Translations under genes and position numbers: made by a program
From: an uncultured virus (IMG/VR IMGVR_UViG_3300031707_000002)
Taxonomy: Duplodnaviria > Heunggongvirae > Uroviricota > Caudoviricetes
Direction: 5' to 3' (one strand)
DNA length: 64,000 nucleotides
Virus record (IMG/VR): IMGVR_UViG_3300031707_000002
In this document: positions 36,982 through 64,000 of the stretch, piece after piece
Layout: every line of letters begins with the position of its first letter
Position numbering within the stretch: position 1 is the first letter of the stretch
The notes under the pieces: model-generated
Told to the model about the DNA's origin: nothing
What the model saw: the letters and a program-made list of their open reading frames with translations, nothing else
The model's database searches: none

Positions 36982-38082
36982 CTATCCTCCACAGTTTATA
37001 GTGGACAGACTTTTCTGGCAGGGTTCTTTAGCCGCCCTGTGCAAAATGTTAATGGCTGCGTTATAATCCGCGTCCATCTCCACTTTACAATCAATACACT
37101 TGTACCGCTCGCCCACACGAGACTCCTTGTGTATTGATCCACACACTGAACAAGTCTGGGAAGTGTAAGCTGGATTGACCTTTGTAAGAAGAACACCGTT
37201 CTCCTCACAAGTTCTCACCAGCTTACCTATTGCCGATAAATAGACCCAATACTGCAACTTGTTCATAAACTTTGTCGAAATTCGATGATCCTTCTTAGAA
37301 TTTCTTTTGACGTTCTTTAGGTCTTCTATAGCAAGACTGTTTACGTTTGACAGGTCTAACTCGTTCACAACTCGGTTAATTTCATTGTCCCGGAATCTCA
37401 AACTCTGCTTAAAATTCTTAGAGTTCCTTACCTTCTTTGATATGTCTGTACAAACTTGCTCAATATCGGTCCCTAAAAACTGACCATCGGAAGTTGAAAG
37501 CAATTTCTTGTAGCCAATATCAACTCCCAAAGACTTACCTGTAGATTTTATTACAGGTGCCTCTTTCTCAAAAGTCAAAAACACAAAATACTTGCCGGAT
37601 TCGTCTTTGGTTAATTTGATGTTCTTCTTACGCTTCCAATCAGCATACTTCAAATAATGCTTGTGATACTTGATTGGTAAGTTTATTGTGACTGCTCGAT
37701 GCTTACCATCCTGAAAATAGGGCAATCGAATATGAATAAACTCATCAAAATGACCATCTTCTTGTACTTCAATATCAAACATCCGGTCATCCAACGAGAT
37801 TGAAGTATTTTGTATCTCTGGCTTTGATTTTTTCTGTTTCTTCTGATTGGACCTGATAATCTCAGATGCTTGCTTATATAAAATTTGTTTCCAAGCAGAA
37901 TAAGTAAAAAGATTTGAAGGACAATCCTTAGAACTGAGAAACTTCTTCAGTGGAAGTTTCTTATCCCAAATTTGATCTATATAAAACTGTAAGTCAACCT
38001 TATAGTCTTGAAATAACTGGTCTAATTGCTTAGACTTAGTACCAGTTTGATACTTCAAAATGTGTTTGGTTGATCTTAACAT
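36982..38082 (-). CDS. tnpB: IS200/IS605-family RNA-guided nuclease TnpB (solo, no tnpA in window)
   Basis: RuvC-I 'LGVDIG', RuvC-II 'LAIEDL', 'VNPAYTSQTCSVCG', 'CIDC', RuvC-III 'DADYNAAINI'. Confidence 0.92.
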   Translation of the reverse strand: MLRSTKHILKYQTGTKSKQLDQLFQDYKVDLQFYIDQIWDKKLPLKKFLSSKDCPSNLFTYSAWKQILYKQASEIIRSNQKKQKKSKPEIQNTSISLDDRMFDIEVQEDGHFDEFIHIRLPYFQDGKHRAVTINLPIKYHKHYLKYADWKRKKNIKLTKDESGKYFVFLTFEKEAPVIKSTGKSLGVDIGYKKLLSTSDGQFLGTDIEQVCTDISKKVRNSKNFKQSLRFRDNEINRVVNELDLSNVNSLAIEDLKNVKRNSKKDHRISTKFMNKLQYWVYLSAIGKLVRTCEENGVLLTKVNPAYTSQTCSVCGSIHKESRVGERYKCIDCKVEMDADYNAAINILHRAAKEPCQKSLSTINCGG

Positions 38083-47784: not shown

Positions 47785-50700
47785 TGTGAGAAGGTTTATT
47801 GACCCTCTCTTTAATCCAAAACCCAGAACCCACTAAATTTCGGATTTTTTCGGCTCTTACTTTGGTAGTACCGCTACCGTTGGAGCCATCACCTTCTTCT
47901 TGAAGTATATCAAGTTCTGACTCAACACCCTCTTCTTCACCTTCACCCTCCTCGCCACTCCCACCTTTTCCTCCACCCTTACCCTCCTCATCCCCTTCAT
48001 CATCGCCGCTTGGCTTTCCCTTCCTTCTTGGAACCGGAACAGAACCACGAGAACCAAGAGCATCAGACTTCGAGGAAGAAGACTTATTTCCTAACAACTT
48101 ATCAATATCAAGATCGGGAAATGCAAATATCTGCTTGAATATGTACTCAACATACATCTTCTTGTTGATAATTCCTTCCATCTCCCCAGACAAACCAAGC
48201 ATAGACGTAGCAATACCAATCTTTCTTTCCGTGTACTCCAAACGAGAATCTTCCTCTGCCGAAGAAATTGGAACCATCCCAATAGACAAATCTTCAACAC
48301 TTATATCCTGACTGTACTTGTAAGACAGGTGAATTTGAAATAGCCGATACATCCCCTCAATAAGTGCCCTCTGCACCTTCTTGACCATACGAGCATATCG
48401 AATATCCAAACGAGTAAGAGTCTGTGAACCAGAAAACCCCGGTATACTTTCAGAATTGTGAACAAACACACCACAAGAGAGAGAGAAGTTGTGGTTGTCA
48501 CTTTCAACAGTTAAATCATAAGCATCTTCAACAACATCAAGATATTCTACATTTACAACTCTATGATTGTAACAATTTGCTGCCATCTTCCTTTCAGAAA
48601 TCATCTTACTATTTGCTTTAGCTCGACAAACCCTCTGGCATCTAACACAGCAAAACCTTGGTGTCTGTAAGTATGAAGAAATGTCGTTGTAAGGAACCTT
48701 CTTCATAAACATCTTCCCACACTCATCACAACAAATCTCAAACTCCTGTGGGTGATAATCACCCCACCTACCCTGAACCATCTTACCCTTCCAAGAAGCA
48801 AACTCAGGACTATCAGGGGAAATAGTCTTCATATAATTAAAGGATTTTCTTCTCCCCTCCTGAATAGCCTTAATTATTCCCTGCCTTGCTTTCTCTCTAT
48901 ACTCAGGATTAGCCATCGGGTTATTCTCACCCTTCTGGTAATCCCTGTTAATACCCATCAAAGACTTTGATACTTTTGCACCAAACCCATCCGGCTTCTT
49001 TCTCCCTTTTCCCAAAACAGACATTCTTTTGGAATACTCAAGCCTCTCCTCTGAAGACATAGCCTCCCGTCTCTTCCTTGCTGAAACACTTCCCAAAGAC
49101 CTGCCCATATCTAAAACACTTGCCATCTCTGGATGATACTTAACAAAATGCTCTCGCCTATTCTCACAAATTGCCAGATTTAAGGCATCATTATTACTCT
49201 TGACTTTATCTCTATGATGAACAACTTGCTCAGAAGATAGAACCTTCCCACCATTCAACAAATCTTCTGCAACAAGACGGTGTACCCGAACATAATGCCG
49301 ATCCTTATTATCAATAATTCCATAATATCCCTTCTCTGCCCCAGACAACTCAAAGTAATATAGAGGCATTAAAGATTCCCCAGAGACAAGTTTCTCTGCC
49401 TCTTTGTAAGACCCATCTCTTAACATACACCTATGGTCAGGGGTAACGTCAAAATATTCTCCGTTATCAAGATGCACCCTAACATACTTCGCATTAAGTC
49501 GCGTCTTGTTAATATCAGAGATATTCGTGGCGTGAACCCTGCCATCCTTATCACTTGTAAAAATTGTCTTGCCCCTGAAATATTCCTTATTCTCAAACAT
49601 CTCCCTAATAGTAGGTGTAGTTCCATCACATAACCGAATACCAGTGTTTCCTCTCAAACACATTCCTAAAAATGCGCCGGGGATGCGGATAGCTGCAAGT
49701 AGCTTATCCCGAATATACTCAATATCAACTATGTCTTTTATGTTTACATCACCACCAACCGTCTCAACTCGCATATCCCCTTTTGTACCTGTATAGGGAA
49801 TAAAAACCTCGTCATTATACTGCAAAGGATTGTACTTCATACGATAGAAATTCACAGGAATATCTATTGCCTTCTTCTGCATAAATTTCTGCTCAAGATC
49901 CTGAATCAAATCCCTACGCTCATCCTTTGTCATACCCTCAGTATTTACATAAAACACACGTATAAGGGGAGATCGGGCAAGACGAGCAAGAGCAAGAGAG
50001 ACTTCAAGCAAATTCAGGATACGATAAATCAATCTTGCGTTCTGCAAAATTGACGTACCATACATCGAAGTAAGAATCTTTTCAACTAACTTACGCTCAC
50101 CCTTCGGAACATCCCCACGTCTATTTGCATCAATCATCCTACGGGAAGGAGATTTCTGAGGATCACCGCTATCAACATCCCAAGTTGACTTATCAAAAGG
50201 TTTTGTATCCTTTGTCTTATCTCCATACTCAGCAGGCTCATCCTCGGCCTCCCCTGTCTTATCCTCCCCCTCCACAGACTTTTGCATTTCATCTTCCCAC
50301 ATCTTGACCTTTACAGACTCAAAATTGGGTTTGAAGTTGTTGATGAAATGCACATACCCTGAAGAGTCCATTATCTCTTCCTTACGGGCAGAAATATCCT
50401 TCTTGATAAAACAAGCAAGTTTTCCGTCTATGTCAATACGATAAACACTTTTTGGATGTTCCGACTCACGAATATTAGTGATCCCTTCACCCTTCTTAGG
50501 GTAAACCCTTAACATGAAATCACCATACTTCGCAATATTATAGGTCCACCCCCAAACCTTATTCTCAAAATCAATTGTTGAAAGAAACTCTTGAAGTTCG
50601 TGGCCGTACTTATGCTTTCCACCAATCCATAAAGTACCATTCATTTCATGGGAGTATTGTGTAGCATCATCAACAACTAACTCCAAAGCAGATGAAATAA

Positions 50701-50947
50701 TTGGATCTTCTTCCATCTGATCATAATCAGAATACCGAGATTCACGATCTTTTTCCAGTTTCGTAGCAGCAGAAAACAACTCCCAAACACGACCCTCATT
50801 CATCAAAACTTTTACAGTATTCGTTGCCTTATCATCAACAACATACACCTCATTTGACTGACCATTTTTTGCATCAGCCTGAAGAGCCTCAAGAACAATA
50901 TTCTCGTTGACTCTTAACCCACCCTTTTCAAACAGACGAACAGACAT
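47714..50947 (-). CDS. Portal protein, T4 gp20-like, with intein
   Basis: 'YDQMEEDPIISSALELVVDDA', 'LLEVSLALARLARSP..RVFYVNT', 'DIVDIEYIRDKLLAAIRIP', 'LTRLDIRYARMVKKVQ'. Confidence 0.9.
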   Translation of the reverse strand: MSVRLFEKGGLRVNENIVLEALQADAKNGQSNEVYVVDDKATNTVKVLMNEGRVWELFSAATKLEKDRESRYSDYDQMEEDPIISSALELVVDDATQYSHEMNGTLWIGGKHKYGHELQEFLSTIDFENKVWGWTYNIAKYGDFMLRVYPKKGEGITNIRESEHPKSVYRIDIDGKLACFIKKDISARKEEIMDSSGYVHFINNFKPNFESVKVKMWEDEMQKSVEGEDKTGEAEDEPAEYGDKTKDTKPFDKSTWDVDSGDPQKSPSRRMIDANRRGDVPKGERKLVEKILTSMYGTSILQNARLIYRILNLLEVSLALARLARSPLIRVFYVNTEGMTKDERRDLIQDLEQKFMQKKAIDIPVNFYRMKYNPLQYNDEVFIPYTGTKGDMRVETVGGDVNIKDIVDIEYIRDKLLAAIRIPGAFLGMCLRGNTGIRLCDGTTPTIREMFENKEYFRGKTIFTSDKDGRVHATNISDINKTRLNAKYVRVHLDNGEYFDVTPDHRCMLRDGSYKEAEKLVSGESLMPLYYFELSGAEKGYYGIIDNKDRHYVRVHRLVAEDLLNGGKVLSSEQVVHHRDKVKSNNDALNLAICENRREHFVKYHPEMASVLDMGRSLGSVSARKRREAMSSEERLEYSKRMSVLGKGRKKPDGFGAKVSKSLMGINRDYQKGENNPMANPEYREKARQGIIKAIQEGRRKSFNYMKTISPDSPEFASWKGKMVQGRWGDYHPQEFEICCDECGKMFMKKVPYNDISSYLQTPRFCCVRCQRVCRAKANSKMISERKMAANCYNHRVVNVEYLDVVEDAYDLTVESDNHNFSLSCGVFVHNSESIPGFSGSQTLTRLDIRYARMVKKVQRALIEGMYRLFQIHLSYKYSQDISVEDLSIGMVPISSAEEDSRLEYTERKIGIATSMLGLSGEMEGIINKKMYVEYIFKQIFAFPDLDIDKLLGNKSSSSKSDALGSRGSVPVPRRKGKPSGDDEGDEEGKGGGKGGSGEEGEGEEEGVESELDILQEEGDGSNGSGTTKVRAEKIRNLVGSGFWIKERVNKPSHSDLRVPAIQERAKLLHVRSTECI
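48455..49660 (-). mobile_element. Intein (402 aa) with HNH homing endonuclease region in portal
   Basis: Starts CLRGNTGI, 'VTPDH', HNH 'VHRLVAE...VVHHRDKVKSNN..LNL', ends 'HNFSLSCGVFVHN' followed by Ser. Confidence 0.92.
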
Positions 50948-51236: not shown

Positions 51237-53762
51237 CTATATAGAAGAAAACAAACCGTGGTCTATCCCACCATAATCACCCGACTCTAAAACCTTCACC
51301 AACTTCAACTCTTTCCCTGTCTTTGGATCAATCCTCTTAGGCATAACCCAACTATCATCAGACTGAGCTTCCTGTCTCAACCCAAGTGTAAACACTATAT
51401 CCCCAACAACCTCAGCATTAGTACGGCCAGCAAAATAAGAAGGATCAGCTTCAACAGCGTTCGCACAAGCGGCAACAAGAGCATCACTACAACCCTTGTC
51501 CCCTCTTGTACCATCATCATTTACATCAGGGTGATCTACCTTCTTAGATTCTACGAAATGATTAAGGTTAAAAAACTCCCGCTCCAAAATGGAGTAGTTG
51601 TACATAATAAGTCTATCTTCATAGATCAAATCCACTACTTGAAGATAAGCAGAGTCATCCTTATCAACAGACCTTCTCGCAGCATTAAAAGAGTTTGCTG
51701 TAAATATCTGAATTGTATCTTCTGATTGGTACTGATCTAACGAAATCTTCCCAAACCTCATACCCATCTGCCGAAGTTCAAAGATAAACTTACGGATTTT
51801 AGTGAATGAAATCCTATCAGGACTCTTGGGGGCCATCACAGACAAAACAATATCAGTCTCCAATTTTGGTATTCTCAACATCGTATTCGGGTCTTCGATC
51901 ATCTCCGCTATGTGAACAATAGCAAGACCCAAAGTATCATGTGTTGTTGCATAGTCAAGGTGAACATACCTCAATGCTTCATGGTGACGTATTAGCCCCT
52001 TGTAACTCGCCTTCCCACTCTCAATCACTTTGTTAAACATCAATTCTGGTAGAAAATAATCTATAAGATGCTGTGTTGTTTTCAGGGATATTGTAAAAGT
52101 CTCTTTTGTAAAAGGATGTCTTATCTCTGAAGAAATACACTTCTGCCAAGCATACTTCGAGGAAAACAACTTACCAGACGGTGATATAGACACACCAGCA
52201 ATATTCCTCAAAGCTCCATACACATCATCTATAAAGTTTTGCTTAAAGTCCATCGGAACTGCTACGAAATTATCTATAAACTTAGCTGGTAACTTTACCA
52301 TAACATCAGACACAGCTTTATCCGTGTCCACACTCTTACCATCTGCAATCATCTTATCCCTAATATCAATAATCTTGGCTCTTATAGCATCAGAACTCAT
52401 AGGAATAAGACCATTTACAGACGTAACAATAAAAGCATCTTCATTTTCAGAACCCTGAAATACAAAGAACCTATCATTAGAGTAGTTCCCCGGCTTAACA
52501 TCCCAAAGAGTCGTAATAAAAATCGTCGCTGAGTTGTACTGTCTGGCTTGCCTAATTCGAGAAGAAACAAATGAAGACTGAATTGAAGCAGACGAAATAA
52601 TAGCAGAAAATCCAGGGTCATAACCCTTCATCATAAACCGAGACATACGACGGTCTGTAACTTCCCTGTAAATCTTAGCCGCCTTTGCAGCATCACCAAC
52701 TGAGGCACCTGAACCACCCCTACGGTAGAAGTCAGCCTCATCCATAATACACCCAAACAAGTTCGTTGATATAACAGAGAGATTATCAGAACCCGGAAGG
52801 ATTGCTATACGTTGAGGAAATTTGAGGATGGACTTGTATGTTCGGTCACGCGGGAACTCTTTTCGGAAGTACGGTATTGAATCCACCATCGACCTAAACT
52901 GCCCAAACCCAACTCTCTCCGCATGTGTCATGTTAATTGACAAATATGCAAACACTATGTCCGTCATGTCAGACAAACCAAACAATCTCTGAGGATAGTC
53001 ATAACAAGACAATTCATAAAGTTTTCTAAGCCAACACACGAAAGCGAAGGTAGTCTTACCTGCACCTATTGAATTATGAACAAAAACACCAGAGGAAAGA
53101 GCAAAGTTATGGTATTTCTCTACCTCAAAATCATACACATCCTCTTTTTCCTCCAACTTTCTAACCACCACTACTCTTACAGGACAGGTTAAAAAACTCA
53201 TCAAACCATCACCCGCCAAAAGCTCTTCCGCACTTCTATAAGAACCATCATCCAACATCCACAAATGATCAGGAGTACATCGTTCTTTACCTCCATTACT
53301 AAGAACTACCTCTACAATATCTTTTTGCAAACCTGTTTTTCTACATCTACTTGCAACACCAATGCCATAATGACCATCCAAAGAACAAGATACTACATCA
53401 AAAACATGACCAGATTCAGCTAACTCTTTTATTGTTCTATCCCGAAGGTCATATAACCGTATCTTAGTAGAACCAACAAAACATCCAGTAATTATAGTTT
53501 CAGGTTTTTTAGAGTCTATATAAGTTGGTAATGCTTCCTTCCAGTACGGATACAAGTCTTTCGCAAGTGATCCCAAATAATATGTGTAATTTACCCACTT
53601 ATTAACAGGTACAATCTCTTTTACCTGAGTAGCTTTTAATACACCAGTCTCTTCAGAGATTGCACGACCCAACAAGCTCTCAATAGCGGAAAATTGAGAA
53701 TCACCTATACCCTCAAAGAACTTTAGGGTTTCAGGAGAGATTTTTTCTGGGATCTCTGACAT
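51237..53762 (-). CDS. terL: Terminase large subunit with intein
   Basis: Spliced Walker A G|SIGAGKT, Walker B 'CIMDEAD', nuclease 'YVHLDYA..HD', 'LDQYQS', 'KVDHP...KGCSDA'. Confidence 0.88.
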   Translation of the reverse strand: MSEIPEKISPETLKFFEGIGDSQFSAIESLLGRAISEETGVLKATQVKEIVPVNKWVNYTYYLGSLAKDLYPYWKEALPTYIDSKKPETIITGCFVGSTKIRLYDLRDRTIKELAESGHVFDVVSCSLDGHYGIGVASRCRKTGLQKDIVEVVLSNGGKERCTPDHLWMLDDGSYRSAEELLAGDGLMSFLTCPVRVVVVRKLEEKEDVYDFEVEKYHNFALSSGVFVHNSIGAGKTTFAFVCWLRKLYELSCYDYPQRLFGLSDMTDIVFAYLSINMTHAERVGFGQFRSMVDSIPYFRKEFPRDRTYKSILKFPQRIAILPGSDNLSVISTNLFGCIMDEADFYRRGGSGASVGDAAKAAKIYREVTDRRMSRFMMKGYDPGFSAIISSASIQSSFVSSRIRQARQYNSATIFITTLWDVKPGNYSNDRFFVFQGSENEDAFIVTSVNGLIPMSSDAIRAKIIDIRDKMIADGKSVDTDKAVSDVMVKLPAKFIDNFVAVPMDFKQNFIDDVYGALRNIAGVSISPSGKLFSSKYAWQKCISSEIRHPFTKETFTISLKTTQHLIDYFLPELMFNKVIESGKASYKGLIRHHEALRYVHLDYATTHDTLGLAIVHIAEMIEDPNTMLRIPKLETDIVLSVMAPKSPDRISFTKIRKFIFELRQMGMRFGKISLDQYQSEDTIQIFTANSFNAARRSVDKDDSAYLQVVDLIYEDRLIMYNYSILEREFFNLNHFVESKKVDHPDVNDDGTRGDKGCSDALVAACANAVEADPSYFAGRTNAEVVGDIVFTLGLRQEAQSDDSWVMPKRIDPKTGKELKLVKVLESGDYGGIDHGLFSSI
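53073..53483 (-). mobile_element. Mini-intein (137 aa) in terminase Walker A
   Basis: Starts CFVGSTKI, 'CTPDH', ends 'YHNFALSSGVFVHN' followed by Ser. Confidence 0.92.
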
Positions 53763-55745: not shown

Positions 55746-56578
55746 ACCGTCACCCGACTTCTCACAATCCCCATAAAATGCACACCCTCACCATCCTTGA
55801 TTGACTTACAATACTTTATCCAAGCATCAGTTGTTGTACTGTAAAAATGATCCTTAATCTTGTTAAACATAATATGAAAAAAAGGCTCCTCAAGTTTCAT
55901 AGGCTTGCCAGCATGTTGAAACCCTGCAAACTCTGGTGGAAGATACTGTGTAAACTCATACCCATGATGAATATTGATGTAGTTTATGGGAAGACCGTCT
56001 ACTTCATCACAAAATTCCTTAGTACCAACACGAGGAGCACCATGAGCTACACAAACACAAGGAAGTCCCAGATTCTTAGCCTTATCCCTTGCTGACAAAA
56101 TAGTAAGTGCTCCACCCCGCGAATGTCCAGTATCGAGAATTGGAGGAAGATTATTTTCTCTCCAAATCTCCCCAAGACGTGTCTTCTTGTCTGCCATCAT
56201 GTGCGTCTTATCATAAGCATATTTTTGAAGATACTCTTGAAAGGTCTGCTTATAGTACAGCCAAGACTTGTAAAAATCACAGTGAATATAGCCAGCCTTC
56301 GTACTACCATCACCAACATACACCAAATATTTCTCTGGACTTGGATCTTGTAGAGGGAACGCATCAAAATCACCTATCCACGCAGCAAGATCCTTTGTTC
56401 CTCGAAAAGAGAAAACTATCTTATCTGGAAACTCCGCTATGTATGCAAAATCTTTATCATTCTCCAACGCCGTGTAGATTGAATTTTCAAATTCTGGAAA
56501 CTTGTCAATAGGAGGACGCTCGTGCATCCCATGACTTGCTGCCTCTGCATACATCCACGACTTTGCAAAACTATCCAT
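55742..56578 (-). CDS. Class 3 lipase / alpha-beta hydrolase
   Basis: 'VFSFRGT', 'TGHSRGGAL', 'GAPRVG', C-terminal 'DH'. Confidence 0.88.
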   Translation of the reverse strand: MDSFAKSWMYAEAASHGMHERPPIDKFPEFENSIYTALENDKDFAYIAEFPDKIVFSFRGTKDLAAWIGDFDAFPLQDPSPEKYLVYVGDGSTKAGYIHCDFYKSWLYYKQTFQEYLQKYAYDKTHMMADKKTRLGEIWRENNLPPILDTGHSRGGALTILSARDKAKNLGLPCVCVAHGAPRVGTKEFCDEVDGLPINYINIHHGYEFTQYLPPEFAGFQHAGKPMKLEEPFFHIMFNKIKDHFYSTTTDAWIKYCKSIKDGEGVHFMGIVRSRVTV

Positions 56579-56589
56579 AAATCCTCCTG

Positions 56590-57246
56590 TTACCTTTTGA
56601 CAAGTCCAAGAAACTTCTCTAACAACTCCTTCTTGGCTTCTCCTTGTATCCCGTAAGGATGAATTATGAAAGCATTATCCAAAACATCACCATCATAATC
56701 CCTTGAATGTTTATTAAAAATATCGTTCTTCCACACACAAACATGACTCTTATTTTCTTCTTGATTACAAAAAAAGTCTATGGCTCTCTGCTCACAGCCA
56801 TCATGTAAGTAAGAACAACCCGGACATCTTAACTTACATGGATCAGAATAACCAACCTTCCCATAAACATCCCTCAAAAAAGACTCTGACCAAGAACAAC
56901 TCTTTACAAAGAAAACCCCTGCATTAACACTGCCATTATCAGCCCTTACTCTACTATCACGATCTCTTGTAATAACAAAATCATTTTCAAAAAACTGCTC
57001 CAACCTCATACCCATATCAACAATCACCGCATCAGCGTCAATCCACACTATACCATCGTATATTGGGGTATAAGTTTGTATAAGTCGTATTTTACTCCAA
57101 ACCAAAGGTCTATCGGTAACTACACTACTACCGACAGATATTAGTTTATATTTATTCCTTTCACAATACTCAAACTTATTCCCAAGAGTCTGCAATGCGT
57201 AATCACTAATCTCATGTGTATGCATCGTCAAAACAGCAATTTTCAT
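56590..57246 (-). CDS. Glycosyltransferase, GT34/galactosyltransferase-like
   Basis: 'NKFEYC', 'WSKI', 'VWIDADA', 'NAGVFFVK', 'EQRA', 'FIIH'. Confidence 0.82.
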   Translation of the reverse strand: MKIAVLTMHTHEISDYALQTLGNKFEYCERNKYKLISVGSSVVTDRPLVWSKIRLIQTYTPIYDGIVWIDADAVIVDMGMRLEQFFENDFVITRDRDSRVRADNGSVNAGVFFVKSCSWSESFLRDVYGKVGYSDPCKLRCPGCSYLHDGCEQRAIDFFCNQEENKSHVCVWKNDIFNKHSRDYDGDVLDNAFIIHPYGIQGEAKKELLEKFLGLVKR

Positions 57247-57914
57247 CGTATGTACGGAATCCTGTGGTAAGGTGCGGGTATTCTTTCCGGTCCTATCAAA
57301 GAATATCTTCGTAGGTTCGACAAATGGTAATGATACAACAGCACTTTATCACAAGGGTTCTTTACAGTATACCCGACCTTTACAAACTCATAAGCAAGTC
57401 TTAGATCACACCCAAATATCCCTTGAGTAAAGTCACAAAACAAATTCTTCTCATCCTTCAAAAAATTCCCTCTGAAAATCCAACAATCCTGCCTGTCCGT
57501 CATAATATCACCAGCAATAAACGGAACAACACTCAAAACATCCCTTCTCGAAACACACCAAACCTCATCATAAGTGATGTTAAAAATGTAAGGCAAAGAA
57601 CTGTGTTCAAGCCAGCAATCTGAATTTATTATTACATTTATATCGTTTGGGAGAGAAACCTCTTTTATCAAGTCAAAATACTCCCTAAAAGTAGGTCTTC
57701 CGTCTATCAACTGTATTGAAGCAATATCTGGAAGACCAACCTGAGTTTGTTGGTAAGAATAAACCAACTCTGCGTCACGAACAGGGTCAGGATCAACATA
57801 CAGGTTGTAAAAAATATTGATCATGTATGGAAATCTATGGTTGATGGAATAGACATCCAATGCGTGACCTTCCATGAAGAATCGTCTTCGCGGTCCCCGC
57901 ACCAATCCGACCAC
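57243..57914 (-). CDS. Putative glycosyltransferase-like protein
   Basis: 'IINSDCW', 'SR', 'QDCWIF', 'G..GCD.RLA', 'NP', 'YHYH'; true start probably downstream of the track start. Confidence 0.55.
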   Translation of the reverse strand: MVGLVRGPRRRFFMEGHALDVYSINHRFPYMINIFYNLYVDPDPVRDAELVYSYQQTQVGLPDIASIQLIDGRPTFREYFDLIKEVSLPNDINVIINSDCWLEHSSLPYIFNITYDEVWCVSRRDVLSVVPFIAGDIMTDRQDCWIFRGNFLKDEKNLFCDFTQGIFGCDLRLAYEFVKVGYTVKNPCDKVLLYHYHLSNLRRYSLIGPERIPAPYHRIPYIR

Positions 57915-58045
57915 CCAACCTCTTTTTGATACTTGACCTGAAAAACAACCTTCTGTCGGTGTTCTGGAAGTCCAACCTCACATAATCCAAGTACCCACAC
58001 ATTATCATCTGGCAACCAACCCTCTACCTTTATCCACGTATGCAT
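57821..58045 (-). CDS. DUF551-like small phage protein
   Basis: 'WIKVE..LP...VL...VTHWM..P'. Confidence 0.7.
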   Translation of the reverse strand: MHTWIKVEGWLPDDNVWVLGLCEVGLPEHRQKVVFQVKYQKEVGWSDWCGDREDDSSWKVTHWMSIPSTIDFHT

Positions 58046-58049
58046 AATC

Positions 58050-58316
58050 TTACTTCCTACCTCTCTTGCTTTTATGAAACTTCAAAGTCGAAGAAGCATC
58101 TTTACTACTTAAAGCATACTCAGGTGGAACTTCGTTGTCGTGAAATGACCTTACAACAAATGTATAATGATTCTCTGGATCTTTAGGAACCCTGTACTTA
58201 AACCCTACAAGAGCCACATCACACTTCTTATCCTTTGGGTCTGAAATATCCGGGGTAAGTAAGAAAGATCCCCAATGATCAATCAAATCTTCAGCAACGT
58301 CAACGATAATCCTCAA
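58050..58316 (-). CDS. Hypothetical protein
   Basis: TTG start with AGGAGG RBS, just downstream of the structured RNA. Confidence 0.6.
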   Translation of the reverse strand: MRIIVDVAEDLIDHWGSFLLTPDISDPKDKKCDVALVGFKYRVPKDPENHYTFVVRSFHDNEVPPEYALSSKDASSTLKFHKSKRGRK

Positions 58317-58334
58317 TAGACACCTCCTGTAATT

Positions 58335-58436
58335 AAAAAAGCCCGTAGGATAACTGGAAGGAAAAACGAGTCCCCACTAAACTCGTACCAGAACCTTACG
58401 GCAACCGGCTTCCAGTAGATCAAACCCTACGGGCTA
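58335..58436 (-). ncRNA. Nested multi-stem structured RNA ending in a U-tract
   Basis: P1 AGCCCGTAGG/CCTACGGGCT, P2 ACTGGAAG/CTTCCAGT, hairpin with GTAA tetraloop, hairpin ACGAGT/ACTCGT. Confidence 0.7.
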
Positions 58437-58438
58437 CA

Positions 58439-58905
58439 CTACTTTCTTTTTTCAGTTTTCGTAGAACAACAACTCTTAGTTCCATCAGGGAACTCGTAAG
58501 TAAGCGTTCTTTCTAACAAATCTACCTTTAACTTCTCCCCTGTCAAATTAAAGTACATTGTCATAAGTCTTATCATGTGTAAACTCAACTCCCTTACCAA
58601 GTCACTATCCGTCGTAAGCTCAACTCCCTTACCAAGTCACTATCCGTCGTAAGATCCGAATTGATAATCTGCGTCAAAGAAACTACATCCCCGACAATTT
58701 TCTCTTGTTGCTCTCTCTGATCCCGCTGATTAACGGGTGAAGGCCGCACAAGATTTACCGTATTCAAAAAAGAAGACAATTCCACATCACTTACTTTCTT
58801 CTCTATAACTTCCTGTCCCTTATCTCTGTTCTTCCATGAAAAAACAAGCCAACGTGCAACATCAACTATACAATCAGACAAACTTATTCTCATACTCTCC
58901 TCCAA
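58439..58905 (-). pseudogene. Gene frameshifted by a 35-bp tandem duplication
   Basis: Removing one repeat copy fuses ORF 58594-58905 in frame with the downstream frame ending at TAG 58439-58441. Confidence 0.7.
58584..58653. repeat. Exact 35-bp tandem duplication
   Basis: CTCAACTCCCTTACCAAGTCACTATCCGTCGTAAG at 58584-58618 and 58619-58653. Confidence 0.95.
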
Positions 58906-58908
58906 TCA

Positions 58909-59661
58909 CTATACCATTCCAGCAATATCCGACAAATACAGCTTCCCACTCTTAGCAAGCAACTCAAGTATCCTCTTTCCTATTACGTTTCTCAAGGGTG
59001 ACTTTATAAACTTGAAAGCAACCTTAGTCATCTCTATATCAACCCTCTGCTGCTCTTTACCATCCAATTTCTTACTATTATCTACAATCAAAAAGTTTTC
59101 CCCTCCAAACAACGTCTGAAATCCTCCTATATTTCCCTGAACCTGATTCCATGCCTGTTTTACAAAATCCTCTGGAACACTTCTCTCCCTTTCTTCATTA
59201 CGCTCAATAGCTACCTCCAAAGAGGTATTTACAAAAACCATGTATGTATCATACCCTATCCTCTCCATAGTCTCTTTCTGCTTTGTAATCTTCGCTAAAT
59301 CCTTACCAGTACCGTCAATCACCAAAGGTAACATACCATTCACCCAATAACCCATACGAGTATCAGTAAGACGCTTCGCAGCCTCCCTTGCTGACAACTG
59401 CTTTGCATGAATCTCTTTGTTTGAAGGGTCTATGTCAAACGGAAGATTCTCTTTTTTCAAGTTTCTCTCAAATACAACATCAGAATTTACAAAATTAGCA
59501 AATCCAGCAAACATTTTCTTAGAGTAGAAGCTCTTGCCACTGCCCGGTCCCCCCGCCATAAACACACACTTGAACAAGTTCGCATCGTTTATGCTCTCTT
59601 TAATCTCATTATCCTTAACATCGTCTTCATACATATCTCTAAGAAGAGCTTTTACTGCCAT
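58909..59661 (-). CDS. P-loop kinase (zeta-toxin/AAA_33-like) with N-terminal LLRDMYE motif
   Basis: 'FMAGGPGSGKS', 'VNSD..FE', 'LVIDGTG', 'MVFVNTSLEVAIERN..RER.VP'. Confidence 0.85.
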   Translation of the reverse strand: MAVKALLRDMYEDDVKDNEIKESINDANLFKCVFMAGGPGSGKSFYSKKMFAGFANFVNSDVVFERNLKKENLPFDIDPSNKEIHAKQLSAREAAKRLTDTRMGYWVNGMLPLVIDGTGKDLAKITKQKETMERIGYDTYMVFVNTSLEVAIERNEERERSVPEDFVKQAWNQVQGNIGGFQTLFGGENFLIVDNSKKLDGKEQQRVDIEMTKVAFKFIKSPLRNVIGKRILELLAKSGKLYLSDIAGMV

Positions 59662-59676
59662 AAGTTTCTCCTGTGT

Positions 59677-59877
59677 TTAATTGATTTCTGAAAGTAACAC
59701 CTTCATCTTCTCTTGCTTACCCTGCATTAACTTCTCATAACAATCATCACACACCACGTCACACTCCTCTACAGGCTTATCAAATTCTTGCTTCATCTCG
59801 GCAATCGCCTCTTCGTCAGACCACGCTTTTTCAAAAGTACCTCCGCAGACACAACACTTGAAAGTATTGTCAGGCAT
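59677..59877 (-). CDS. Small zinc-finger protein
   Basis: CxxC ... CDDC. Confidence 0.6.
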   Translation of the reverse strand: MPDNTFKCCVCGGTFEKAWSDEEAIAEMKQEFDKPVEECDVVCDDCYEKLMQGKQEKMKVLLSEIN

Positions 59878-59879
59878 AA

Positions 59880-60167
59880 TTACTTCTCCACTCTTACGCT
59901 CAAGTTACCATTACACTTAGGACATTGAACCACAAACTCTCTTGTGTCTGGCTTATCAACATGATTGACGTTATAGATACCAAACTCGAAGACAAGAACA
60001 TTCAGGACAATCAAACGTGCGGATATATGAGGATTATGGTCACTTTTGTAAAGATCAATCTGAGATTCAAAGTTTACAAAATTGATCCCATCCTTAAACT
60101 TACGAATAACATAGAAAAACGCAAGCTCCCAAGCATAGTTCTTAGATATTTTCGTTCCTATGACCAC
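59880..60167 (-). CDS. Hypothetical protein with C-terminal CPKC
   Basis: 95-aa ORF. Confidence 0.5.
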   Translation of the reverse strand: MVIGTKISKNYAWELAFFYVIRKFKDGINFVNFESQIDLYKSDHNPHISARLIVLNVLVFEFGIYNVNHVDKPDTREFVVQCPKCNGNLSVRVEK

Positions 60168-60193
60168 CGTTCTTTCCTTCCTTATTCTTGTTC

Positions 60194-60385
60194 TTATCTC
60201 TTCATCAACGAATGGTCAAGGCAATATTTCTTCCTTCGTACAACACGAAATTCAGCGGTGCATCCTTCCCACTGACACCGCCTCATAGAAGTATATCGTC
60301 TTTTGCTCTGTATTTTAGTTTCTTCTATGTAATACTTATCTATGTACTGATGTCCTTTACTTACTATCTCATCAATCCTTGACAT
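60194..60385 (-). CDS. Small Cys-containing protein
   Basis: 'RCQWEGC...KYCLDH'; likely start at MSRIDE. Confidence 0.45.
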   Translation of the reverse strand: MSRIDEIVSKGHQYIDKYYIEETKIQSKRRYTSMRRCQWEGCTAEFRVVRRKKYCLDHSLMKR

Positions 60386-60655
60386 GACACACCACTTACT
60401 CAAACACCACAAGAAAGCATGTTACATAGCTTTGATCTTCTACTTTTCTCTCTGCTTCCAAACAAGCCTCGCAACGCATTATCCACCCGTTTATCTGAAT
60501 CAACTCGGTGTAAGATTTTTCTTCAAAAGGGAAAAGTCGGCACACAGAAACTGTCCAAAAGTCTTAGTCCCAAAAAATTTGCAAAACTTGTTAGGCTCAC
60601 TGACGTTAAAGCACCACAATTAAGATCAAACCGTACTTCTATCATAGAAATCCCC

Positions 60656-60976
60656 TTACTTTGATCCCACTCTCTGCTTTCCGCACATAGGACAGAATTT
60701 TACACCGTTATCTGTTGCTGTACCTTCAGAAAAACACCACTTATCCCCACACTCCGTATCATAAGAGTCTGTTGTAGAGTCGTATATCCAATGACAAGTC
60801 TTCTTTGGCTTCGCACACACCTCTCCTTCCACTATGATCTCACCTCTTGGACGAACTGGAGGTGGAGGAGGTGGAGGAGGTGGAGGAGGTGGAGGAGGTG
60901 GAGGAGGTGCCGGAACTTTCTTCATTCGCTCCAATTTCTCTGGTGACGGTAAGGATCGTGGCGCGTTTGTAGTCAT
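60656..60976 (-). CDS. Poly-proline plus zinc-ribbon protein
   Basis: Long P run encoded by CCT/CCA codons; C-terminal 'TECG...FCPMCGK'. Confidence 0.65.
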   Translation of the reverse strand: MTTNAPRSLPSPEKLERMKKVPAPPPPPPPPPPPPPPPPPVRPRGEIIVEGEVCAKPKKTCHWIYDSTTDSYDTECGDKWCFSEGTATDNGVKFCPMCGKQRVGSK

Positions 60977-61413
60977 TTCTCACCCACTACCTTCAACAAA
61001 TCATCCATTGTCTCTCTGTCAGCAACAACTACAAAAAGACGCAAAAGATGGTCTACAGCATCTTTAAGTTCTACCCACTTAGCTTTGAACTTAACATAAA
61101 ACTTCTCTGGTAACTCATACTCAGAATAGTTAATCTGCTTTTGCATATCAAAAATCTTTGTCTTAACAACAGCTTCAACATCAGAAACAAGTGAAGGTGA
61201 AACTACTAAACGAACTCTTCTATTCCAATACTCTACCGCTTCCTTCTCAGAGTAAACCAACCCACCACACGTAGCTCCACAATCACACTGCACTCGAAAA
61301 TCACCAAGATCGTCAAGCTCCTCGTACATCTCAGGAGTACCGCCACAAAAAGGACAAGGCAGTAACCCCTCTACTGGATGGTCTGTCTTAACACTCATTG
61401 AAACTCCTTCCAC
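60973..61413 (-). CDS. Lar-family restriction-alleviation-like protein
   Basis: 'LLPCPFCGG...VQCDCGA...EAVEYWNRR'. Confidence 0.7.
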   Translation of the reverse strand: MEGVSMSVKTDHPVEGLLPCPFCGGTPEMYEELDDLGDFRVQCDCGATCGGLVYSEKEAVEYWNRRVRLVVSPSLVSDVEAVVKTKIFDMQKQINYSEYELPEKFYVKFKAKWVELKDAVDHLLRLFVVVADRETMDDLLKVVGEK

Positions 61414-61556
61414 ACATAACCATGATTCTCTGTGTCAGGATCTACCTTCCACTTCTCATGTTCTAACCTACCATCATCCTGGTCTTCATTCTCTCTTATA
61501 TCAGGCTCTTTACCTGCCCCATGAAGAAAATTCTCGTCATCCTCGTACCCCATATA

Positions 61557-61799
61557 CTACGTTCTTTCTCTCTCAAAGGCACACAAGCAGTTTACATAAG
61601 ACACTGAGTTATATCCTTTAGAACGAAATATCGGCCAGAACTTCTTACCATCAAACTCTGTTATCTGTTTTATCTTCTTTGGTATGTGCAACTCCCCATA
61701 CTTTTCACCTTTTGGTATAGGAACACCATTCACCTCACACTGAGTATACCTCACCGCTTTCATGTGCAAATAGCGACGTTCAAACTCCTGCTTAGGCAT
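61557..61799 (-). CDS. Hypothetical protein
   Basis: 80-aa ORF. Confidence 0.5.
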   Translation of the reverse strand: MPKQEFERRYLHMKAVRYTQCEVNGVPIPKGEKYGELHIPKKIKQITEFDGKKFWPIFRSKGYNSVSYVNCLCAFERERT

Positions 61800-61940
61800 C
61801 TAACAGCATTCTCCTCCAACGCTCAAGTGCAGCTACGAATTCCTCTTTTTTATCTTTACCTCTTCCACAAGCAACATCTGTCCCGTTAATAAAAACCACT
61901 CCCCACGGGTCAACGTCAAATAATTCCATGACTCTCTTAA

Positions 61941-62159
61941 TCAACTTTTCGGGGTCTGTTGGCAATGCTTCAAAGTATGATTATCAAACATGTACCAATA
62001 ATTTCTTTTTAGAGGACTCTTAGCCTTGCTAACCTCACGAATGAAAAACTTTGCCTGCTCAAGACCTTTAATGAAAGAGTCCTGATCAATACCCTTTGGG
62101 GCCATATTAGCTTTACACCACTCAATTTCCTTATCTACAGCATCAAGATACTCCTGCAT
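61941..62159 (-). CDS. Hypothetical protein
   Basis: 72 aa, GGAGG RBS. Confidence 0.55.
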   Translation of the reverse strand: MQEYLDAVDKEIEWCKANMAPKGIDQDSFIKGLEQAKFFIREVSKAKSPLKRNYWYMFDNHTLKHCQQTPKS

Positions 62160-62178
62160 ATTCTTCCTCCATTATTTC

Positions 62179-62382
62179 TCAACCTATAGTGTCAAGCCGT
62201 GTTTTGGGCTTTAGCTGTTGTACGAAGTGGCGCAAATTCCGCAGTGTCCGCCACGCCTTATCCAACAGCGTGTACCAATGATAAACTATGAATGCACGCG
62301 GGAATCCTGACCAGAAATGCCACTTACCGCAATACGGATAGTTACAGAACGATTTACTTTCAATAATGAAACCTCTCCACAT
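62179..62382 (-). CDS. Cassette ORF (terminal unit, half-site only)
   Basis: 67 aa, reads through GTACAAC. Confidence 0.45.
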   Translation of the reverse strand: MWRGFIIESKSFCNYPYCGKWHFWSGFPRAFIVYHWYTLLDKAWRTLRNLRHFVQQLKPKTRLDTIG

Positions 62383-62432
62383 AAACTTCTACTTTCCGGC
62401 GCGGCCTATAAATTCAGGCTTTGCGCCATTTT

Positions 62433-62556
62433 GTACAACGTCTACGCAATGGGCGATAGTTTGCCCCTACAATTACACTGGCCTACCACGACCACATGTA
62501 TGCCATCGGTGTCCTCAAAATAATGAGGGCAAATTTCGGCCCTTGCGGTGTTGGGT
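62433..62556 (-). repeat. attC-like site F
   Basis: CCCAAC-ACCGCAA-GGGCCGAAATTTGCCC ... GGGCAAACTATCGCCC-ATTGCG-TAGAC-GTTGTAC. Confidence 0.8.
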
Positions 62557-62678
62557 GCCGGTTTGTCAACCACCACGCGGTTGGCCGCGCTCCAACCGAT
62601 CTCCGCACTCACCATATCTATCTGATAATCACCAGGCCCTTGCGTCTTCCACCACTCACGGAATGTCTTCGCGGCCAT
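62442..62678 (-). CDS. Cassette ORF
   Basis: GGAGG RBS, MAAKTFREWW...; ends inside site F. Confidence 0.65.
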   Translation of the reverse strand: MAAKTFREWWKTQGPGDYQIDMVSAEIGWSAANRVVVDKPAPNTARAEICPHYFEDTDGIHVVVVGQCNCRGKLSPIA

Positions 62679-62705
62679 ATCACCTCCAAAGTTGACAAAC
62701 TGGCA

Positions 62706-62831
62706 TCCCAACGTCTTGCGAAACGTGCGCCGTGCTACAGATTATAGTGGCACACCATACACGCTTCGCCGAGCGAATACCGCCCTGCACGCTCACCACA
62801 GTTCGGACATGGCGCACTTTTGCTGTTGGTT
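62706..62831 (-). repeat. attC-like site E
   Basis: ACCAAC-AGCAAAA-GTGCGCCATG ... CACGGCGCAC-GTTTCGC-AAGAC-GTTGGGA. Confidence 0.8.
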
Positions 62832-62950
62832 GTCTGTTGAGCGAGTACAGCGGTTTTCAGAGTTTGCCATGCTTCATCCGCAAGAACGACATTACCTACA
62901 TGTATAGCACAATTTTTCTCGATAGCATCAATAGCCTCGATTGGCGTCAT
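62735..62950 (-). CDS. Cassette ORF with C-terminal zinc ribbon
   Basis: AGGAG RBS; CPNC...CMVC is encoded within site E. Confidence 0.65.
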   Translation of the reverse strand: MTPIEAIDAIEKNCAIHVGNVVLADEAWQTLKTAVLAQQTTNSKSAPCPNCGERAGRYSLGEACMVCHYNL

Positions 62951-62986
62951 GGCATACTCCTATAATAAATTTTAGAGCGAAATTGC

Positions 62987-63046
62987 AAACAACGTTCCGG
63001 CAAATTGCCGAAGTGTGCATCACATTTTGGCATTTGCCTGTTGTGT
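62987..63046 (-). repeat. attC-like site D (60 bp)
   Basis: ACACAAC-AGGCAAA-TGCCAAAATGTG-ATG-CACACTTCGGCA-ATTTGCC-GGAAC-GTTGTTT. Confidence 0.85.
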
Positions 63047-63244
63047 GCTGTTTTTTGCGCCACCGCTGCTTTCAGAGGTTGGCGGGGATGGAACGAGCAT
63101 CCAATGCGTTATTTTGCAATTATACTCGCAATGGCCAGCAATAAAATCCTGTGCGTGAATAGTCTCGATACTGCCGTTGTCAAAATGAACTAATATCGGG
63201 CCATCGTAATCCGGGACAACACCTTCACCTTTTTTGTACCACAT
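63020..63244 (-). CDS. Cassette ORF, DUF551-like
   Basis: AGGAGG RBS, MWYKKGEGVVP...ITHWMLVPSPP; ends in the loop of site D. Confidence 0.7.
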   Translation of the reverse strand: MWYKKGEGVVPDYDGPILVHFDNGSIETIHAQDFIAGHCEYNCKITHWMLVPSPPTSESSGGAKNSTQQANAKM

Positions 63245-63281
63245 AGCCAACCTCCTATAATTTGAAAGCGCAAAAAATTGC

Positions 63282-63414
63282 ATACAACGTTTTGCTCTAT
63301 TGCGACGTGCGTGACAACCACTTGTCAACCTTATTACGGTAGCACTCCGAACAACGCGGAGATTTGGTCCGCACAAAAACGCACTCTCCGCATGGCGTAA
63401 TAGCGCTGTTGGGT
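63282..63414 (-). repeat. attC-like site C
   Basis: CCCAAC-AGCGCTATT-ACGCCATGCG ... CGCACGTCGC-AATAGAGC-AAAAC-GTTGTAT. Confidence 0.75.
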
Positions 63415-63554
63415 GCCGTGGAATGAGCATCCGCCAGATAGTGGCCACAGTCGCTGCACAAAGAATAGTTGCTGTCCCGAACTATGCATACATCTCGCTT
63501 AATGCAATCAAGTTTTTTGTGGCCACCTATAACCTCCAAGCGAATGAATGGCAT
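63297..63554 (-). CDS. Cassette ORF, Cys-rich (start uncertain)
   Basis: Several CxxC pairs; the RBS-linked GTG is one base out of frame across an A6 run. Confidence 0.5.
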   Translation of the reverse strand: MPFIRLEVIGGHKKLDCIKRDVCIVRDSNYSLCSDCGHYLADAHSTAPNSAITPCGECVFVRTKSPRCSECYRNKVDKWLSRTSQ

Positions 63555-63692
63555 CCCAACGATCCGCGCTACTGGTTCCGTTGCTCGATCTCACGCAGAA
63601 AATCACAAAACCTCATTTTTTGCGCATCAGACCGAGAAGAAGACAATGCCAGTTTGCGCACGAGAGCAATGGCATCTATAGCGCTGTTGGGT
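63554..63692 (-). repeat. attC-like site B
   Basis: CCCAAC-AGCGCTA-TAGATGCCATTGCTC ... GAGCAACGGAACC-AGTAGCGC-GGATC-GTTGGGA. Confidence 0.78.
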
Positions 63693-63793
63693 GCCGTTGT
63701 TGACAATTCCTCCGGTTTGGAGGCGCAGCGATCGCACGAACCTGCCGGTATGCCGTGCTGACACCACCCGTTGAGCAATACGCTATCATTCAT
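63569..63793 (-). CDS. Cassette ORF
   Basis: GAGGAGG RBS, MNDSVLLNGWCQHG...CDRC; ends in the right arm of site B. Confidence 0.65.
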   Translation of the reverse strand: MNDSVLLNGWCQHGIPAGSCDRCASKPEELSTTAPNSAIDAIALVRKLALSSSRSDAQKMRFCDFLREIEQRNQ

Positions 63794-63832
63794 TTTGCGC
63801 CTCCTCGGCATATCGACTTGTCAACTATGGCA

Positions 63833-63960
63833 TCCCAACGTCCGAGCAATGTACGCAGTGCTACTGCTTGTGACAAATCGGAACTCCGGTACAGCAACAA
63901 CTTTTGATAGGATACTTGCAGCTCGCATACAGAGAGCATTGCGTACTTGCTTTGTTGGTG
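63833..63960 (-). repeat. attC-like site A
   Basis: ACCAAC-AAAGCAA-GTACGCAATGC ... GCACTGCGTAC-ATTGCT-CGGAC-GTTGGGA. Confidence 0.8.
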
Positions 63961-64000
63961 GATGTAAATCTTTCCACCATAGCGTTCTGTGCGGCATTCC

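Follow-up and report, generated by a model that had tools for sequence, protein, structure and literature searches.

The 64,000-nt stretch of DNA analysed here (the window) comes from IMG/VR virus record IMGVR_UViG_3300031707_000002, and it matches, letter for letter, positions of a virus record of 167,660 bp with direct terminal repeats that is rated complete. Structural genes within the window, encoding a major head protein, a protease and a portal, identify the virus as a tailed phage. At the right-hand end of the window lies an array of eight units and eight hairpins, probably a set of integron-like gene cassettes, which starts at position 62181 and continues past the window end to window-equivalent position 64452, as read from the 167,660-bp record. 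An initial annotation, made from the letters of the window alone, had covered six of the eight units (62217..63839). On the + strand, units running from a GTT to an AAC triplet (153–274 nt) alternate with hairpins running from AAC to GTT (52–131 nt for the seven internal ones and 39 nt for the one at the left end). The DNA to the left of 62160 is phage-like, with minus-strand genes and a GC fraction mostly between 0.36 and 0.49; from 62500 on the GC fraction is 0.48–0.51, and AT-rich phage genes return beyond 64452. A scan of the whole phage for extra sites gave six candidates elsewhere in the genome, which were weakly structured, lay in coding DNA and were judged false; the scan recovered four of the seven known sites, so single extra copies could be missed.

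The cassette open reading frames (ORFs), with their ribosome-binding sites, lie on the minus strand. They start in a unit and read through its far end, the AAC triplet and most or all of the hairpin to the left, while the stop codon (TAG, TAA or TGA) falls in the unpaired spacer just before GTT, both in C1 to C6 and in relatives from loci L008–L034. The C-terminal parts encoded by the hairpins are conserved peptide families common to different N-terminal parts. Read in the coding sense, the array has no hairpin upstream of its first cassette and one after its last, an arrangement that fits the insertion of complete cassettes, each formed by an ORF and the hairpin that follows it.

The ends of each unit are complementary to one another: the first ~21 nt after GTT (the head) pair with the last ~21 nt before AAC (the tail) of the same unit. 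In an anchored alignment of the 23 nt after each GTT with the reverse complement of the 23 nt before each AAC, carried out over all eight units, own pairs reached a mean score of 8.1, compared with 0.27 (standard deviation 2.9) for permuted pairs and −0.8 for the pairs of the integrated junctions. The observed sum of scores was reached by the identity permutation only, that is, by one in 40,320, and six of the eight units ranked first in both row and column, the exceptions being U3 (0.0) and U5 (2.5). Circularising each unit in silico, with the hairpin, head and tail of one unit folded together, placed the own combination first of eight for six of the eight cassettes, and these folds were 8–16 kcal/mol more stable than those of the integrated junction or of permuted pairs, whichever neighbouring hairpin was assigned to the unit. 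The initial annotation had suggested this folding comparison, and several of its statements stand: the four head/tail pairs that it quoted are present in the sequence as written, a head does match its own unit's tail better than the opposite side of the same hairpin, and the two units that it had described as weak are U3 and U5. In U5, past the first ~10 nt, the head (63408–63433) carries a direct and not an inverted repeat of part of its own tail (63534–63560), as it is in the relatives L012, L020, L032 and L011; this repeat may be the remnant of an empty or fused cassette.

Table 1. Features of the array, in window coordinates. Units run from GTT to AAC and hairpins from AAC to GTT on the + strand; the strand column gives the coding strand.
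Feature	Coordinates	Strand	Remarks
Terminal hairpin, AAC...GTT, 39 nt	62181..62219	-	Last array site in coding orientation; abuts the phage gene starting at 62159; −3.3 kcal/mol alone, −21.1 kcal/mol with own head and tail
Unit U1 (head 62217-62242, tail 62414-62439)	62217..62439	-	Own score 11.0, rank 1; holds 5' part of ORF C1 (62182-62382, -)
Hairpin H12, attC-like	62437..62552	-	Encodes C-terminal part of ORF C2; fold −21.1 (+ strand) and −20.9 kcal/mol (- strand); arm asymmetry
Unit U2, ORF C2 (62445-62678, -)	62550..62712	-	Own score 10.5, rank 1
Hairpin H23	62710..62827	-	93% identical copy between other units in metagenome contig L022 (match to array positions 645-764)
Unit U3, ORF C3 (62738-62950, -)	62825..62993	-	Weak head/tail match, own score 0.0; H23+U3 in another context in a metagenome contig
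Hairpin H34, 52 nt	62991..63042	-	Fold −16.1 (+ strand) and −10.9 kcal/mol (- strand)
Unit U4, ORF C4 (63023-63244, -), DUF551-like phage protein	63040..63288	-	Own score 10.5; PF04448 E=0.007, phrog_924 E=2.2e-6
Hairpin H45	63286..63410	-	Fold and arm comparison
Unit U5, ORF C5 (63300-63554, -; start codon uncertain)	63408..63560	-	Own score 2.5
Hairpin H56	63558..63688	-	Fold and arm comparison
Unit U6, ORF C6 (63572-63793, -; head 63686-63709, tail 63815-63839)	63686..63839	-	Own score 12.5; many relatives with the same ends and another interior
Hairpin H67	63837..63956	-	Fold; H67+U7 in another context in a metagenome contig
Unit U7, start (cut by window end)	63954..64000	-	U7, hairpin H78 and U8 run on to window-equivalent 64452 (L002 1891-2389); own scores 7.0 (U7) and 11.0 (U8)

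The pairing of heads with their own tails is conserved in other phages. A metagenome scan in which only the first 10–11 nt of one head/tail type were fixed returned 28 stretches, two of them the phage's own contig and one contig listed twice, and 24 other contigs are represented. Four of these 24 appear to be chance matches in bacterial genes, with no extended match; all array-bearing contigs have phage contexts, and no non-chance match adjoins an intI gene. Past the fixed bases head and tail covary, a change in the inner arm of one being mirrored in the other within the same cassette type (L023, L026). Across 42 independent cassettes, neither selected by the pattern nor taken from this phage, the own mean was 4.92 and the permuted mean −0.49, and none of 20,000 permutations reached the observed sum. 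One hairpin family from the metagenome loci is found in five further IMG/VR phage contigs (20–467 kb), each with a strand-biased array. A blastn search of window positions 56500–64000 against cultured phages gave no match, and a search with the flanking proteins, together with a first pattern scan, found nothing beyond a sister contig with the very same array, which is therefore uninformative on variation.

The architecture of the outer stem emerges from the comparison of 78 distinct, automatically called cassettes. In these, matches between own head and tail are elevated at positions 5–7 and 13–21 and drop to 0.23 and 0.05 at positions 10–11, where the head nearly always carries TG, opposed by TT in the tail. 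In 28 of the 78 the arm is clean, with 8 or more matches over the ten positions 12–21. These 28 cassettes comprise 20 arm families that differ on average at 6.5 of 10 positions and yet keep 273 of 280 positions paired, so the outer stem is a conserved structure with free sequence. Its layout is an R box of 8–9 bp, a fixed 2-nt mismatch and a cassette-specific helix of 10 bp. Of the other detection procedures tried, a simple stem-match detector missed most known sites and was dropped, and an energy-only scan was too permissive.

The hairpins share a fold rather than a sequence. On the + (non-coding) strand of the seven internal ones, AAC plus one further base pairs with GTT, followed by a bulge of 3–4 nt on the 5' arm only and by ~6 bp; then come one unpaired base on the bulged arm, more stem and a variable loop. 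Over 22 aligned hairpins the mean column identity is 35%, while 5' CAAC is invariant, as are the 3' G and the second T of GTT, the first T being kept in at least 90%; this applies to the seven internal hairpins of the phage as well. Hairpins reach 166 nt in relatives, and an Rfam search gave no match. In one related array (L024, ~5000–5010, in minus-strand sense) the hairpin at the end is succeeded by GGT in place of GTT; here the array may have joined the phage backbone at a non-canonical target.

The mismatches indicate which strand folds. In the outer stems of the clean-arm cassettes there are 12 G·T and one A·C mismatches on the non-coding strand; since a G·T on this strand is an A·C in the transcript, this bias points to folding of the single-stranded non-coding DNA, as in integrons, and against a structure in mRNA. 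The predicted stabilities lean the same way: the + strand is more stable than the − strand in six of seven hairpins alone and in seven of eight circularised sites. Taken together, these observations argue for the non-coding DNA strand, not the mRNA, as the molecule that folds.

As a classical control we used a chromosomal integron fragment of Vibrio anguillarum with an adjacent intI, carried in phage MK672802. Here own head/tail matches extend over 8–11 nt, with an own mean of 2.5 against −0.17 for permuted pairs; 134 of 20,000 permutations reach the observed sum, in a set where the border rule mis-set 2 of 11 cassette borders. The outer stem of the phage cassettes, at ~21 nt, is therefore longer than in the control, as the initial annotation had asserted for classical attC in general. 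The Vibrio sites (AAC...GTT, ~118–124 nt) have a symmetric 3x3 spacer. Five of the 12 sites folded carry single-base bulges at the 9th and 12th base pairs on the 3' arm of the bottom strand, which corresponds to the 5' arm of the coding (top) strand; a sixth is bulged at the 9th base pair only, and the rest show no clear pattern. In all seven phage hairpins the bulge and the extra base sit instead on the 5' arm of the non-coding strand, beside the favoured break point (see below), in a mirror image of Vibrio, and in 14 of 16 related arrays the coding strand is likewise the one opposite the strand with the bulged 5' arm. In the account of attC given in PMC5027507, cleavage occurs at the AAC in R' of the bottom strand, the extrahelical bases lie near L'', and the spacer measures 5–6 nt per arm. 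The phage sites thus lack the extrahelical bases of the L'' arm (the 3' arm of the bottom strand). They do have the AAC/GTT triplets at the inner end of a paired R box and, more strongly than the Vibrio control, a cassette start complementary to its own outer R box rather than to the neighbour's. As to the unpaired spacer and the length of 57–141 nt of classical sites, the phage hairpins measure 52–131 nt (up to 166 nt in relatives) with a one-sided spacer, 3–5 nt against 0–1 nt. The mirrored position of the bulge is the only structural hint toward a different enzyme geometry.

The cassettes behave as modules. Contigs of other sediment metagenomes were compared with the array at 85% likeness; these are assembled contigs, and one of the runs may be the source sample. 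One contig of 342 nt is exactly one cassette, H78 plus U8 (L002 2048–2389), with a depth of 740 compared with 304 for the contig that carries the phage's left flank in the same run. H67 plus U7 lies within a 1238-nt contig with foreign flanks, H23 plus U3 within a 548-nt contig in a foreign context, and in one contig U7 is followed by a U3-like head. Many skip joints had sides shorter than 30 nt at this likeness and were taken only as other cassettes with the same ends. BLAST blocks shared by the array and the metagenome loci have both their boundaries within a few bases of the cores and, at base level, identity begins exactly at CAAC or stops exactly after GTT. For 21 pairs of sites with a common hairpin (at least 90% identity), both flanks were kept in 6, neither in 10, only the flank after GTT (the unit whose ORF enters the hairpin) in 5 and only the other flank in none. 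In all five informative pairs with a common hairpin, similarity ends exactly at CAAC on the non-coding strand. The linkage on the head side, together with the ends of the array, points to an ORF and its following hairpin as the favoured unit of exchange, and suggests that the favoured break is at AAC on the non-coding strand, equivalent to G|TT on the coding strand.

Searches for a recombinase gave no candidate. The complete phage record contains no match to PF00589 or TIGR02249, hence no detectable tyrosine recombinase or integron integrase, and the adjacent intI that marks a complete integron is missing from the array. PF00589 was also absent from all five related phage records, three of which are at least 96% complete, and serine recombinases and Y1 transposases were each absent from the five records searched for them (this phage and four of the five related ones). 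Such empty searches may be compatible with an unrecognised or host-encoded enzyme, and the recombinase presumably acts in trans. The phage does encode a TnpB-like protein (36985–38082, −) 25 kb from the array, with a Cas12f1-like TNB domain (E=2.4e-18), which is not a recombinase; a TnpB/OrfB_IS605 gene also lies ~2 kb from a related array (L026 3197–4303), and no TnpA was found.

As judged from its protein matches, the cassette cargo is of phage type. The ORF C4 product is DUF551-like, its PF04448 match lying below the cut-off of that family and its phrog_924 match being the stronger of the two. A second cargo protein belongs to a small family conserved over its first ~65 residues; an unrelated phage contig carries a 48%-identical member as an ordinary gene lacking hairpins. 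In the coding sense, a TATAGG-like motif, often preceded by ACCAT, is placed after the outer arm and before the ribosome-binding site, at 62395–62402, 62958–62965, 63258–63266 and 63528–63535 and in relatives. The same motif stands directly before the phage gene at 62159, and it may be a promoter carried by the cassettes.

The array seems to be placed in an anti-defence or accessory region of the genome. Lar-like restriction-alleviation proteins are encoded on both sides of it (60976–61413, −, and L002 2663–2911, −), and a zeta-toxin/AAA_33-like kinase lies nearby at 58912–59661. A run of GGAGGT/GGAGGA repeats at 60843–60905, within a 106-residue minus-strand ORF (60656–60976), is translated as a proline-rich stretch. 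Further to the left, the portal-like ORF (47717–50947, −) has an HNH endonuclease-like insert, and next to it an 841-residue ORF (51240–53762, −) contains an intein splicing domain (PF14890, E=2.2e-11).

The reading that we favour, and consider likely, is that of an integron-like array of eight mobile gene cassettes in a complete 167.7-kb phage, in which a cassette's two ends, head and tail, are halves of one split, folded recombination site. On the coding (minus) strand, each cassette would consist, in order, of G|TT with one half of the R box, the 2-nt mismatch, a 10-nt specific arm, the promoter-like motif, the ribosome-binding site, the small ORF, the complementary 10-nt arm, the other half of the R box ending in AAC, and an imperfect hairpin of 39–131 nt ending in G. 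Head and tail would form the two halves of the outer helix of a single long recombination site, contiguous only in a circular cassette. Strand exchange within the invariant AAC/GTT triplet would split this site on integration, each junction then combining the tail of one cassette with the head of its neighbour. The non-coding strand would fold as single-stranded DNA, as in integrons, and the recombinase would be supplied in trans.

Several observations weigh against this reading. Two of the eight cassettes, C3 and C5, have no extended stem, and their circle folds are no better than those of permuted pairs. Single-stranded array DNA could form these base pairs in cis as well, over the 150–270 nt of a unit and with no need for a circle. 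The second core of the hairpin is also a sharp break point, as seen in the 10 pairs that kept neither flank, so cassettes are not the sole unit of exchange and the picture is not that of a single G|TT; in turn, the head-side linkage of 5 against 0 is a small count that could reflect selection for intact ORFs. The site caller is crude (four of the seven known sites at its strict setting), and many of the 78 called cassettes will therefore have wrong borders. No single-cassette back-join, as expected of a circle junction, is present among the joints listed, all from assembled contigs, which cannot show one. Finally, no recombinase was found in six phage records, nor PF00589 among 121 ORFs of at least 140 residues in the metagenome loci.

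These points also bear on the more interpretive statements of the initial annotation. It had the full stem forming only upon circularisation, which is wrong: pairing in cis means that a circle is not the sole condition for the stem, and only contiguity with the hairpin needs one. Its idea of units acquired independently as circles holds as far as independence is concerned, given the modules with alternative neighbours (H67+U7, H23+U3 and the single-cassette contig) and the breaks at cores, while the circular form would follow from the model. A crossover at G|TT agrees with the favoured break, although the exact bond cannot be placed within the invariant CAAC/GTTG core and the other core breaks as well. 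A distinct class of recombinase is a tentative idea drawn from structure, namely from the greater length of the helix, the invariant mismatch and the bulges on the mirror-image arm; no recombinase was found in the six phage records.

A bolder version goes further and is at present tentative. The sites could constitute a phage-specific class of structure-specific recombination site, defined by the TG·TT mismatch, the 10-bp helix of free sequence and the mirrored bulges, and served by a non-classical recombinase, because tyrosine, serine and Y1-HUH enzymes were not found in the carrier phages searched. Both AAC triplets would be live crossover points, so that gene fronts carried by the units and protein backs encoded by the hairpins would reassort independently. 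If true, this would amount to exon shuffling at the level of DNA.

Among the alternatives, the one that fares best, though we regard it as unlikely, is that the phage captured ordinary bacterial cassettes, with classical attC sites, from a host integron and that a host IntI moves them, the long stem being an elaboration of one lineage. The AAC/GTT cores, unpaired spacer, extrahelical base and variable loop of the hairpins would be expected of attC, and the GC fraction of the array (~0.48–0.51) stands out from that of the flanking phage DNA (~0.36–0.49). Precedents exist too: clusters of attC sites without an integrase (CALINs) have been described in virulent phages, and five of six tested sites were recombined by IntI1 according to the report of Qi et al. 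2023 (PMC9892861), while IntI is described as inserting cassettes outside att sites (bioRxiv 10.1101/2022.09.11.507474). When the published CALIN phages were scanned without restriction, ~50 matches in TJE1 and 10 in P12002L were scattered over the genomes. Set against a host origin is the position of the bulge and extrahelical base: in the phage they are on the arm by the non-coding-strand AAC, whereas the Vibrio control and the sites described in PMC5027507 have them on the other arm, close to L''. The cargo is of phage type, with a DUF551-like protein and with a family that also occurs as a plain phage gene, and all non-chance matches fall in phage-like contigs, none beside intI. The ORFs, moreover, run through the entire site, and every cassette comes with a ribosome-binding site and a promoter-like motif of its own.

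It is improbable that the units are regulatory cassettes of the PeSL kind, with hairpins that act as terminators beside promoters and homologous recombination through which genes are shuffled and mini-circles arise, as in T4-type phages. The array does belong to an accessory part of a large phage genome that is made up of small genes, the TATAGG-like motif recurs upstream of each ribosome-binding site, and exchange between conserved promoter/terminator motifs of PeSL cassettes is reported to yield encapsidated mini-circles (Arbiol et al. 2010, PMC2839356). The hairpins, however, differ in sequence (with the low column identity given above, they are not a conserved promoter-plus-terminator repeat), and the common core of 3–4 nt is too short for homologous exchange, yet the breaks are exact. 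They lie within ORFs and have no T-runs, and the 12:1 ratio of G·T to A·C favours a folded non-coding DNA strand over a transcript.

Miniature transposons of the MITE type, whose terminal inverted repeats would account for the match of head and tail, are very improbable: units of 150–270 nt with inverted ends of ~21 nt and the TnpB-like genes in the phage and beside the L026 array would suit them, but the 10-bp arms are cassette-specific and covarying (20 families, 273/280 paired) where a transposase would need a common, family-wide identical repeat, target-site duplications are absent, the units abutting common cores, and no Y1 transposase was found in five records. Equally hard to credit is a pairing that acts in RNA, with the 5' untranslated start binding a downstream coding stretch and controlling translation or stability; in the coding sense, head and tail do lie on either side of the ribosome-binding site and the N-terminal part of the coding sequence, but the 12 mismatches that are G·T on the non-coding strand would be A·C in the transcript, with only one the reverse, and the non-coding strand folds better in seven of eight sites.

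It is generally held that integron cassettes travel in circular form, a view for which the early evidence is a match of 7 bp between the first bases of a cassette and its own attC. In the phage array the same logic spans ~21 nt with cassette-specific, covarying arms, which makes the split-site model readable directly from the sequence in dozens of cassettes and in several unrelated phages. The extended and mirrored architecture of these sites may escape current attC detectors and models. The outer arm, the fixed mismatch and the side of the bulge also offer clear test objects for the enzyme that would move genes among virulent phages in which no recombinase was detected.

Mobile regulatory PeSL cassettes of T4-type phages were reportedly treated by Comeau et al. 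in 2014 (PMC4122927). PeSL cassettes resemble the present array in their small accessory genes, located in plastic regions of large phages, their flanking stem-loops and their proposed small circular intermediates. They are, on the other hand, conserved promoter-plus-terminator sequences exchanged by homology, unlike the phage hairpins, which are diverse in sequence, lie within ORFs and break at a core of 3–4 nt.

The sedentary chromosomal integron of Vibrio shares with the array its AAC...GTT sites and own head/tail matches that exceed permuted ones; it differs in the shorter span of these matches (8–11 nt), its 3x3 loop, its oppositely placed bulges and its adjacent intI. Neither an outer helix of this extended, cassette-specific kind nor the mirrored bulges came up in a literature search, which is no proof of absence. 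Hall, Brookes and Stokes are said to have argued in 1991 that the start of a cassette belongs to its own site, in support of a G|TT crossover and of circular cassettes.

Compared with integron cassettes and CALINs at large, the phage cassettes stand apart in an own-pair helix of ~21 nt (8–9 bp, a 2-nt mismatch and 10 bp) in place of 7–11 nt, in a one-sided bulge of 3–5 nt in place of a two-sided loop, and in a bulge and extrahelical base placed on the other arm when gene direction and favoured break are taken as reference. Their ORFs extend across the site to a stop codon in its spacer, break points occur at both cores, and none of the six phage records yielded an integrase. What they have in common with integron cassettes and CALINs is the basic plan: small ORFs in one orientation, an imperfect hairpin with conserved AAC/GTT triplets after each of them, a structure that is kept while the sequence varies and a non-coding strand that folds better. 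With integron cassettes they also share a cassette start that is the complement of its own site's outer part.

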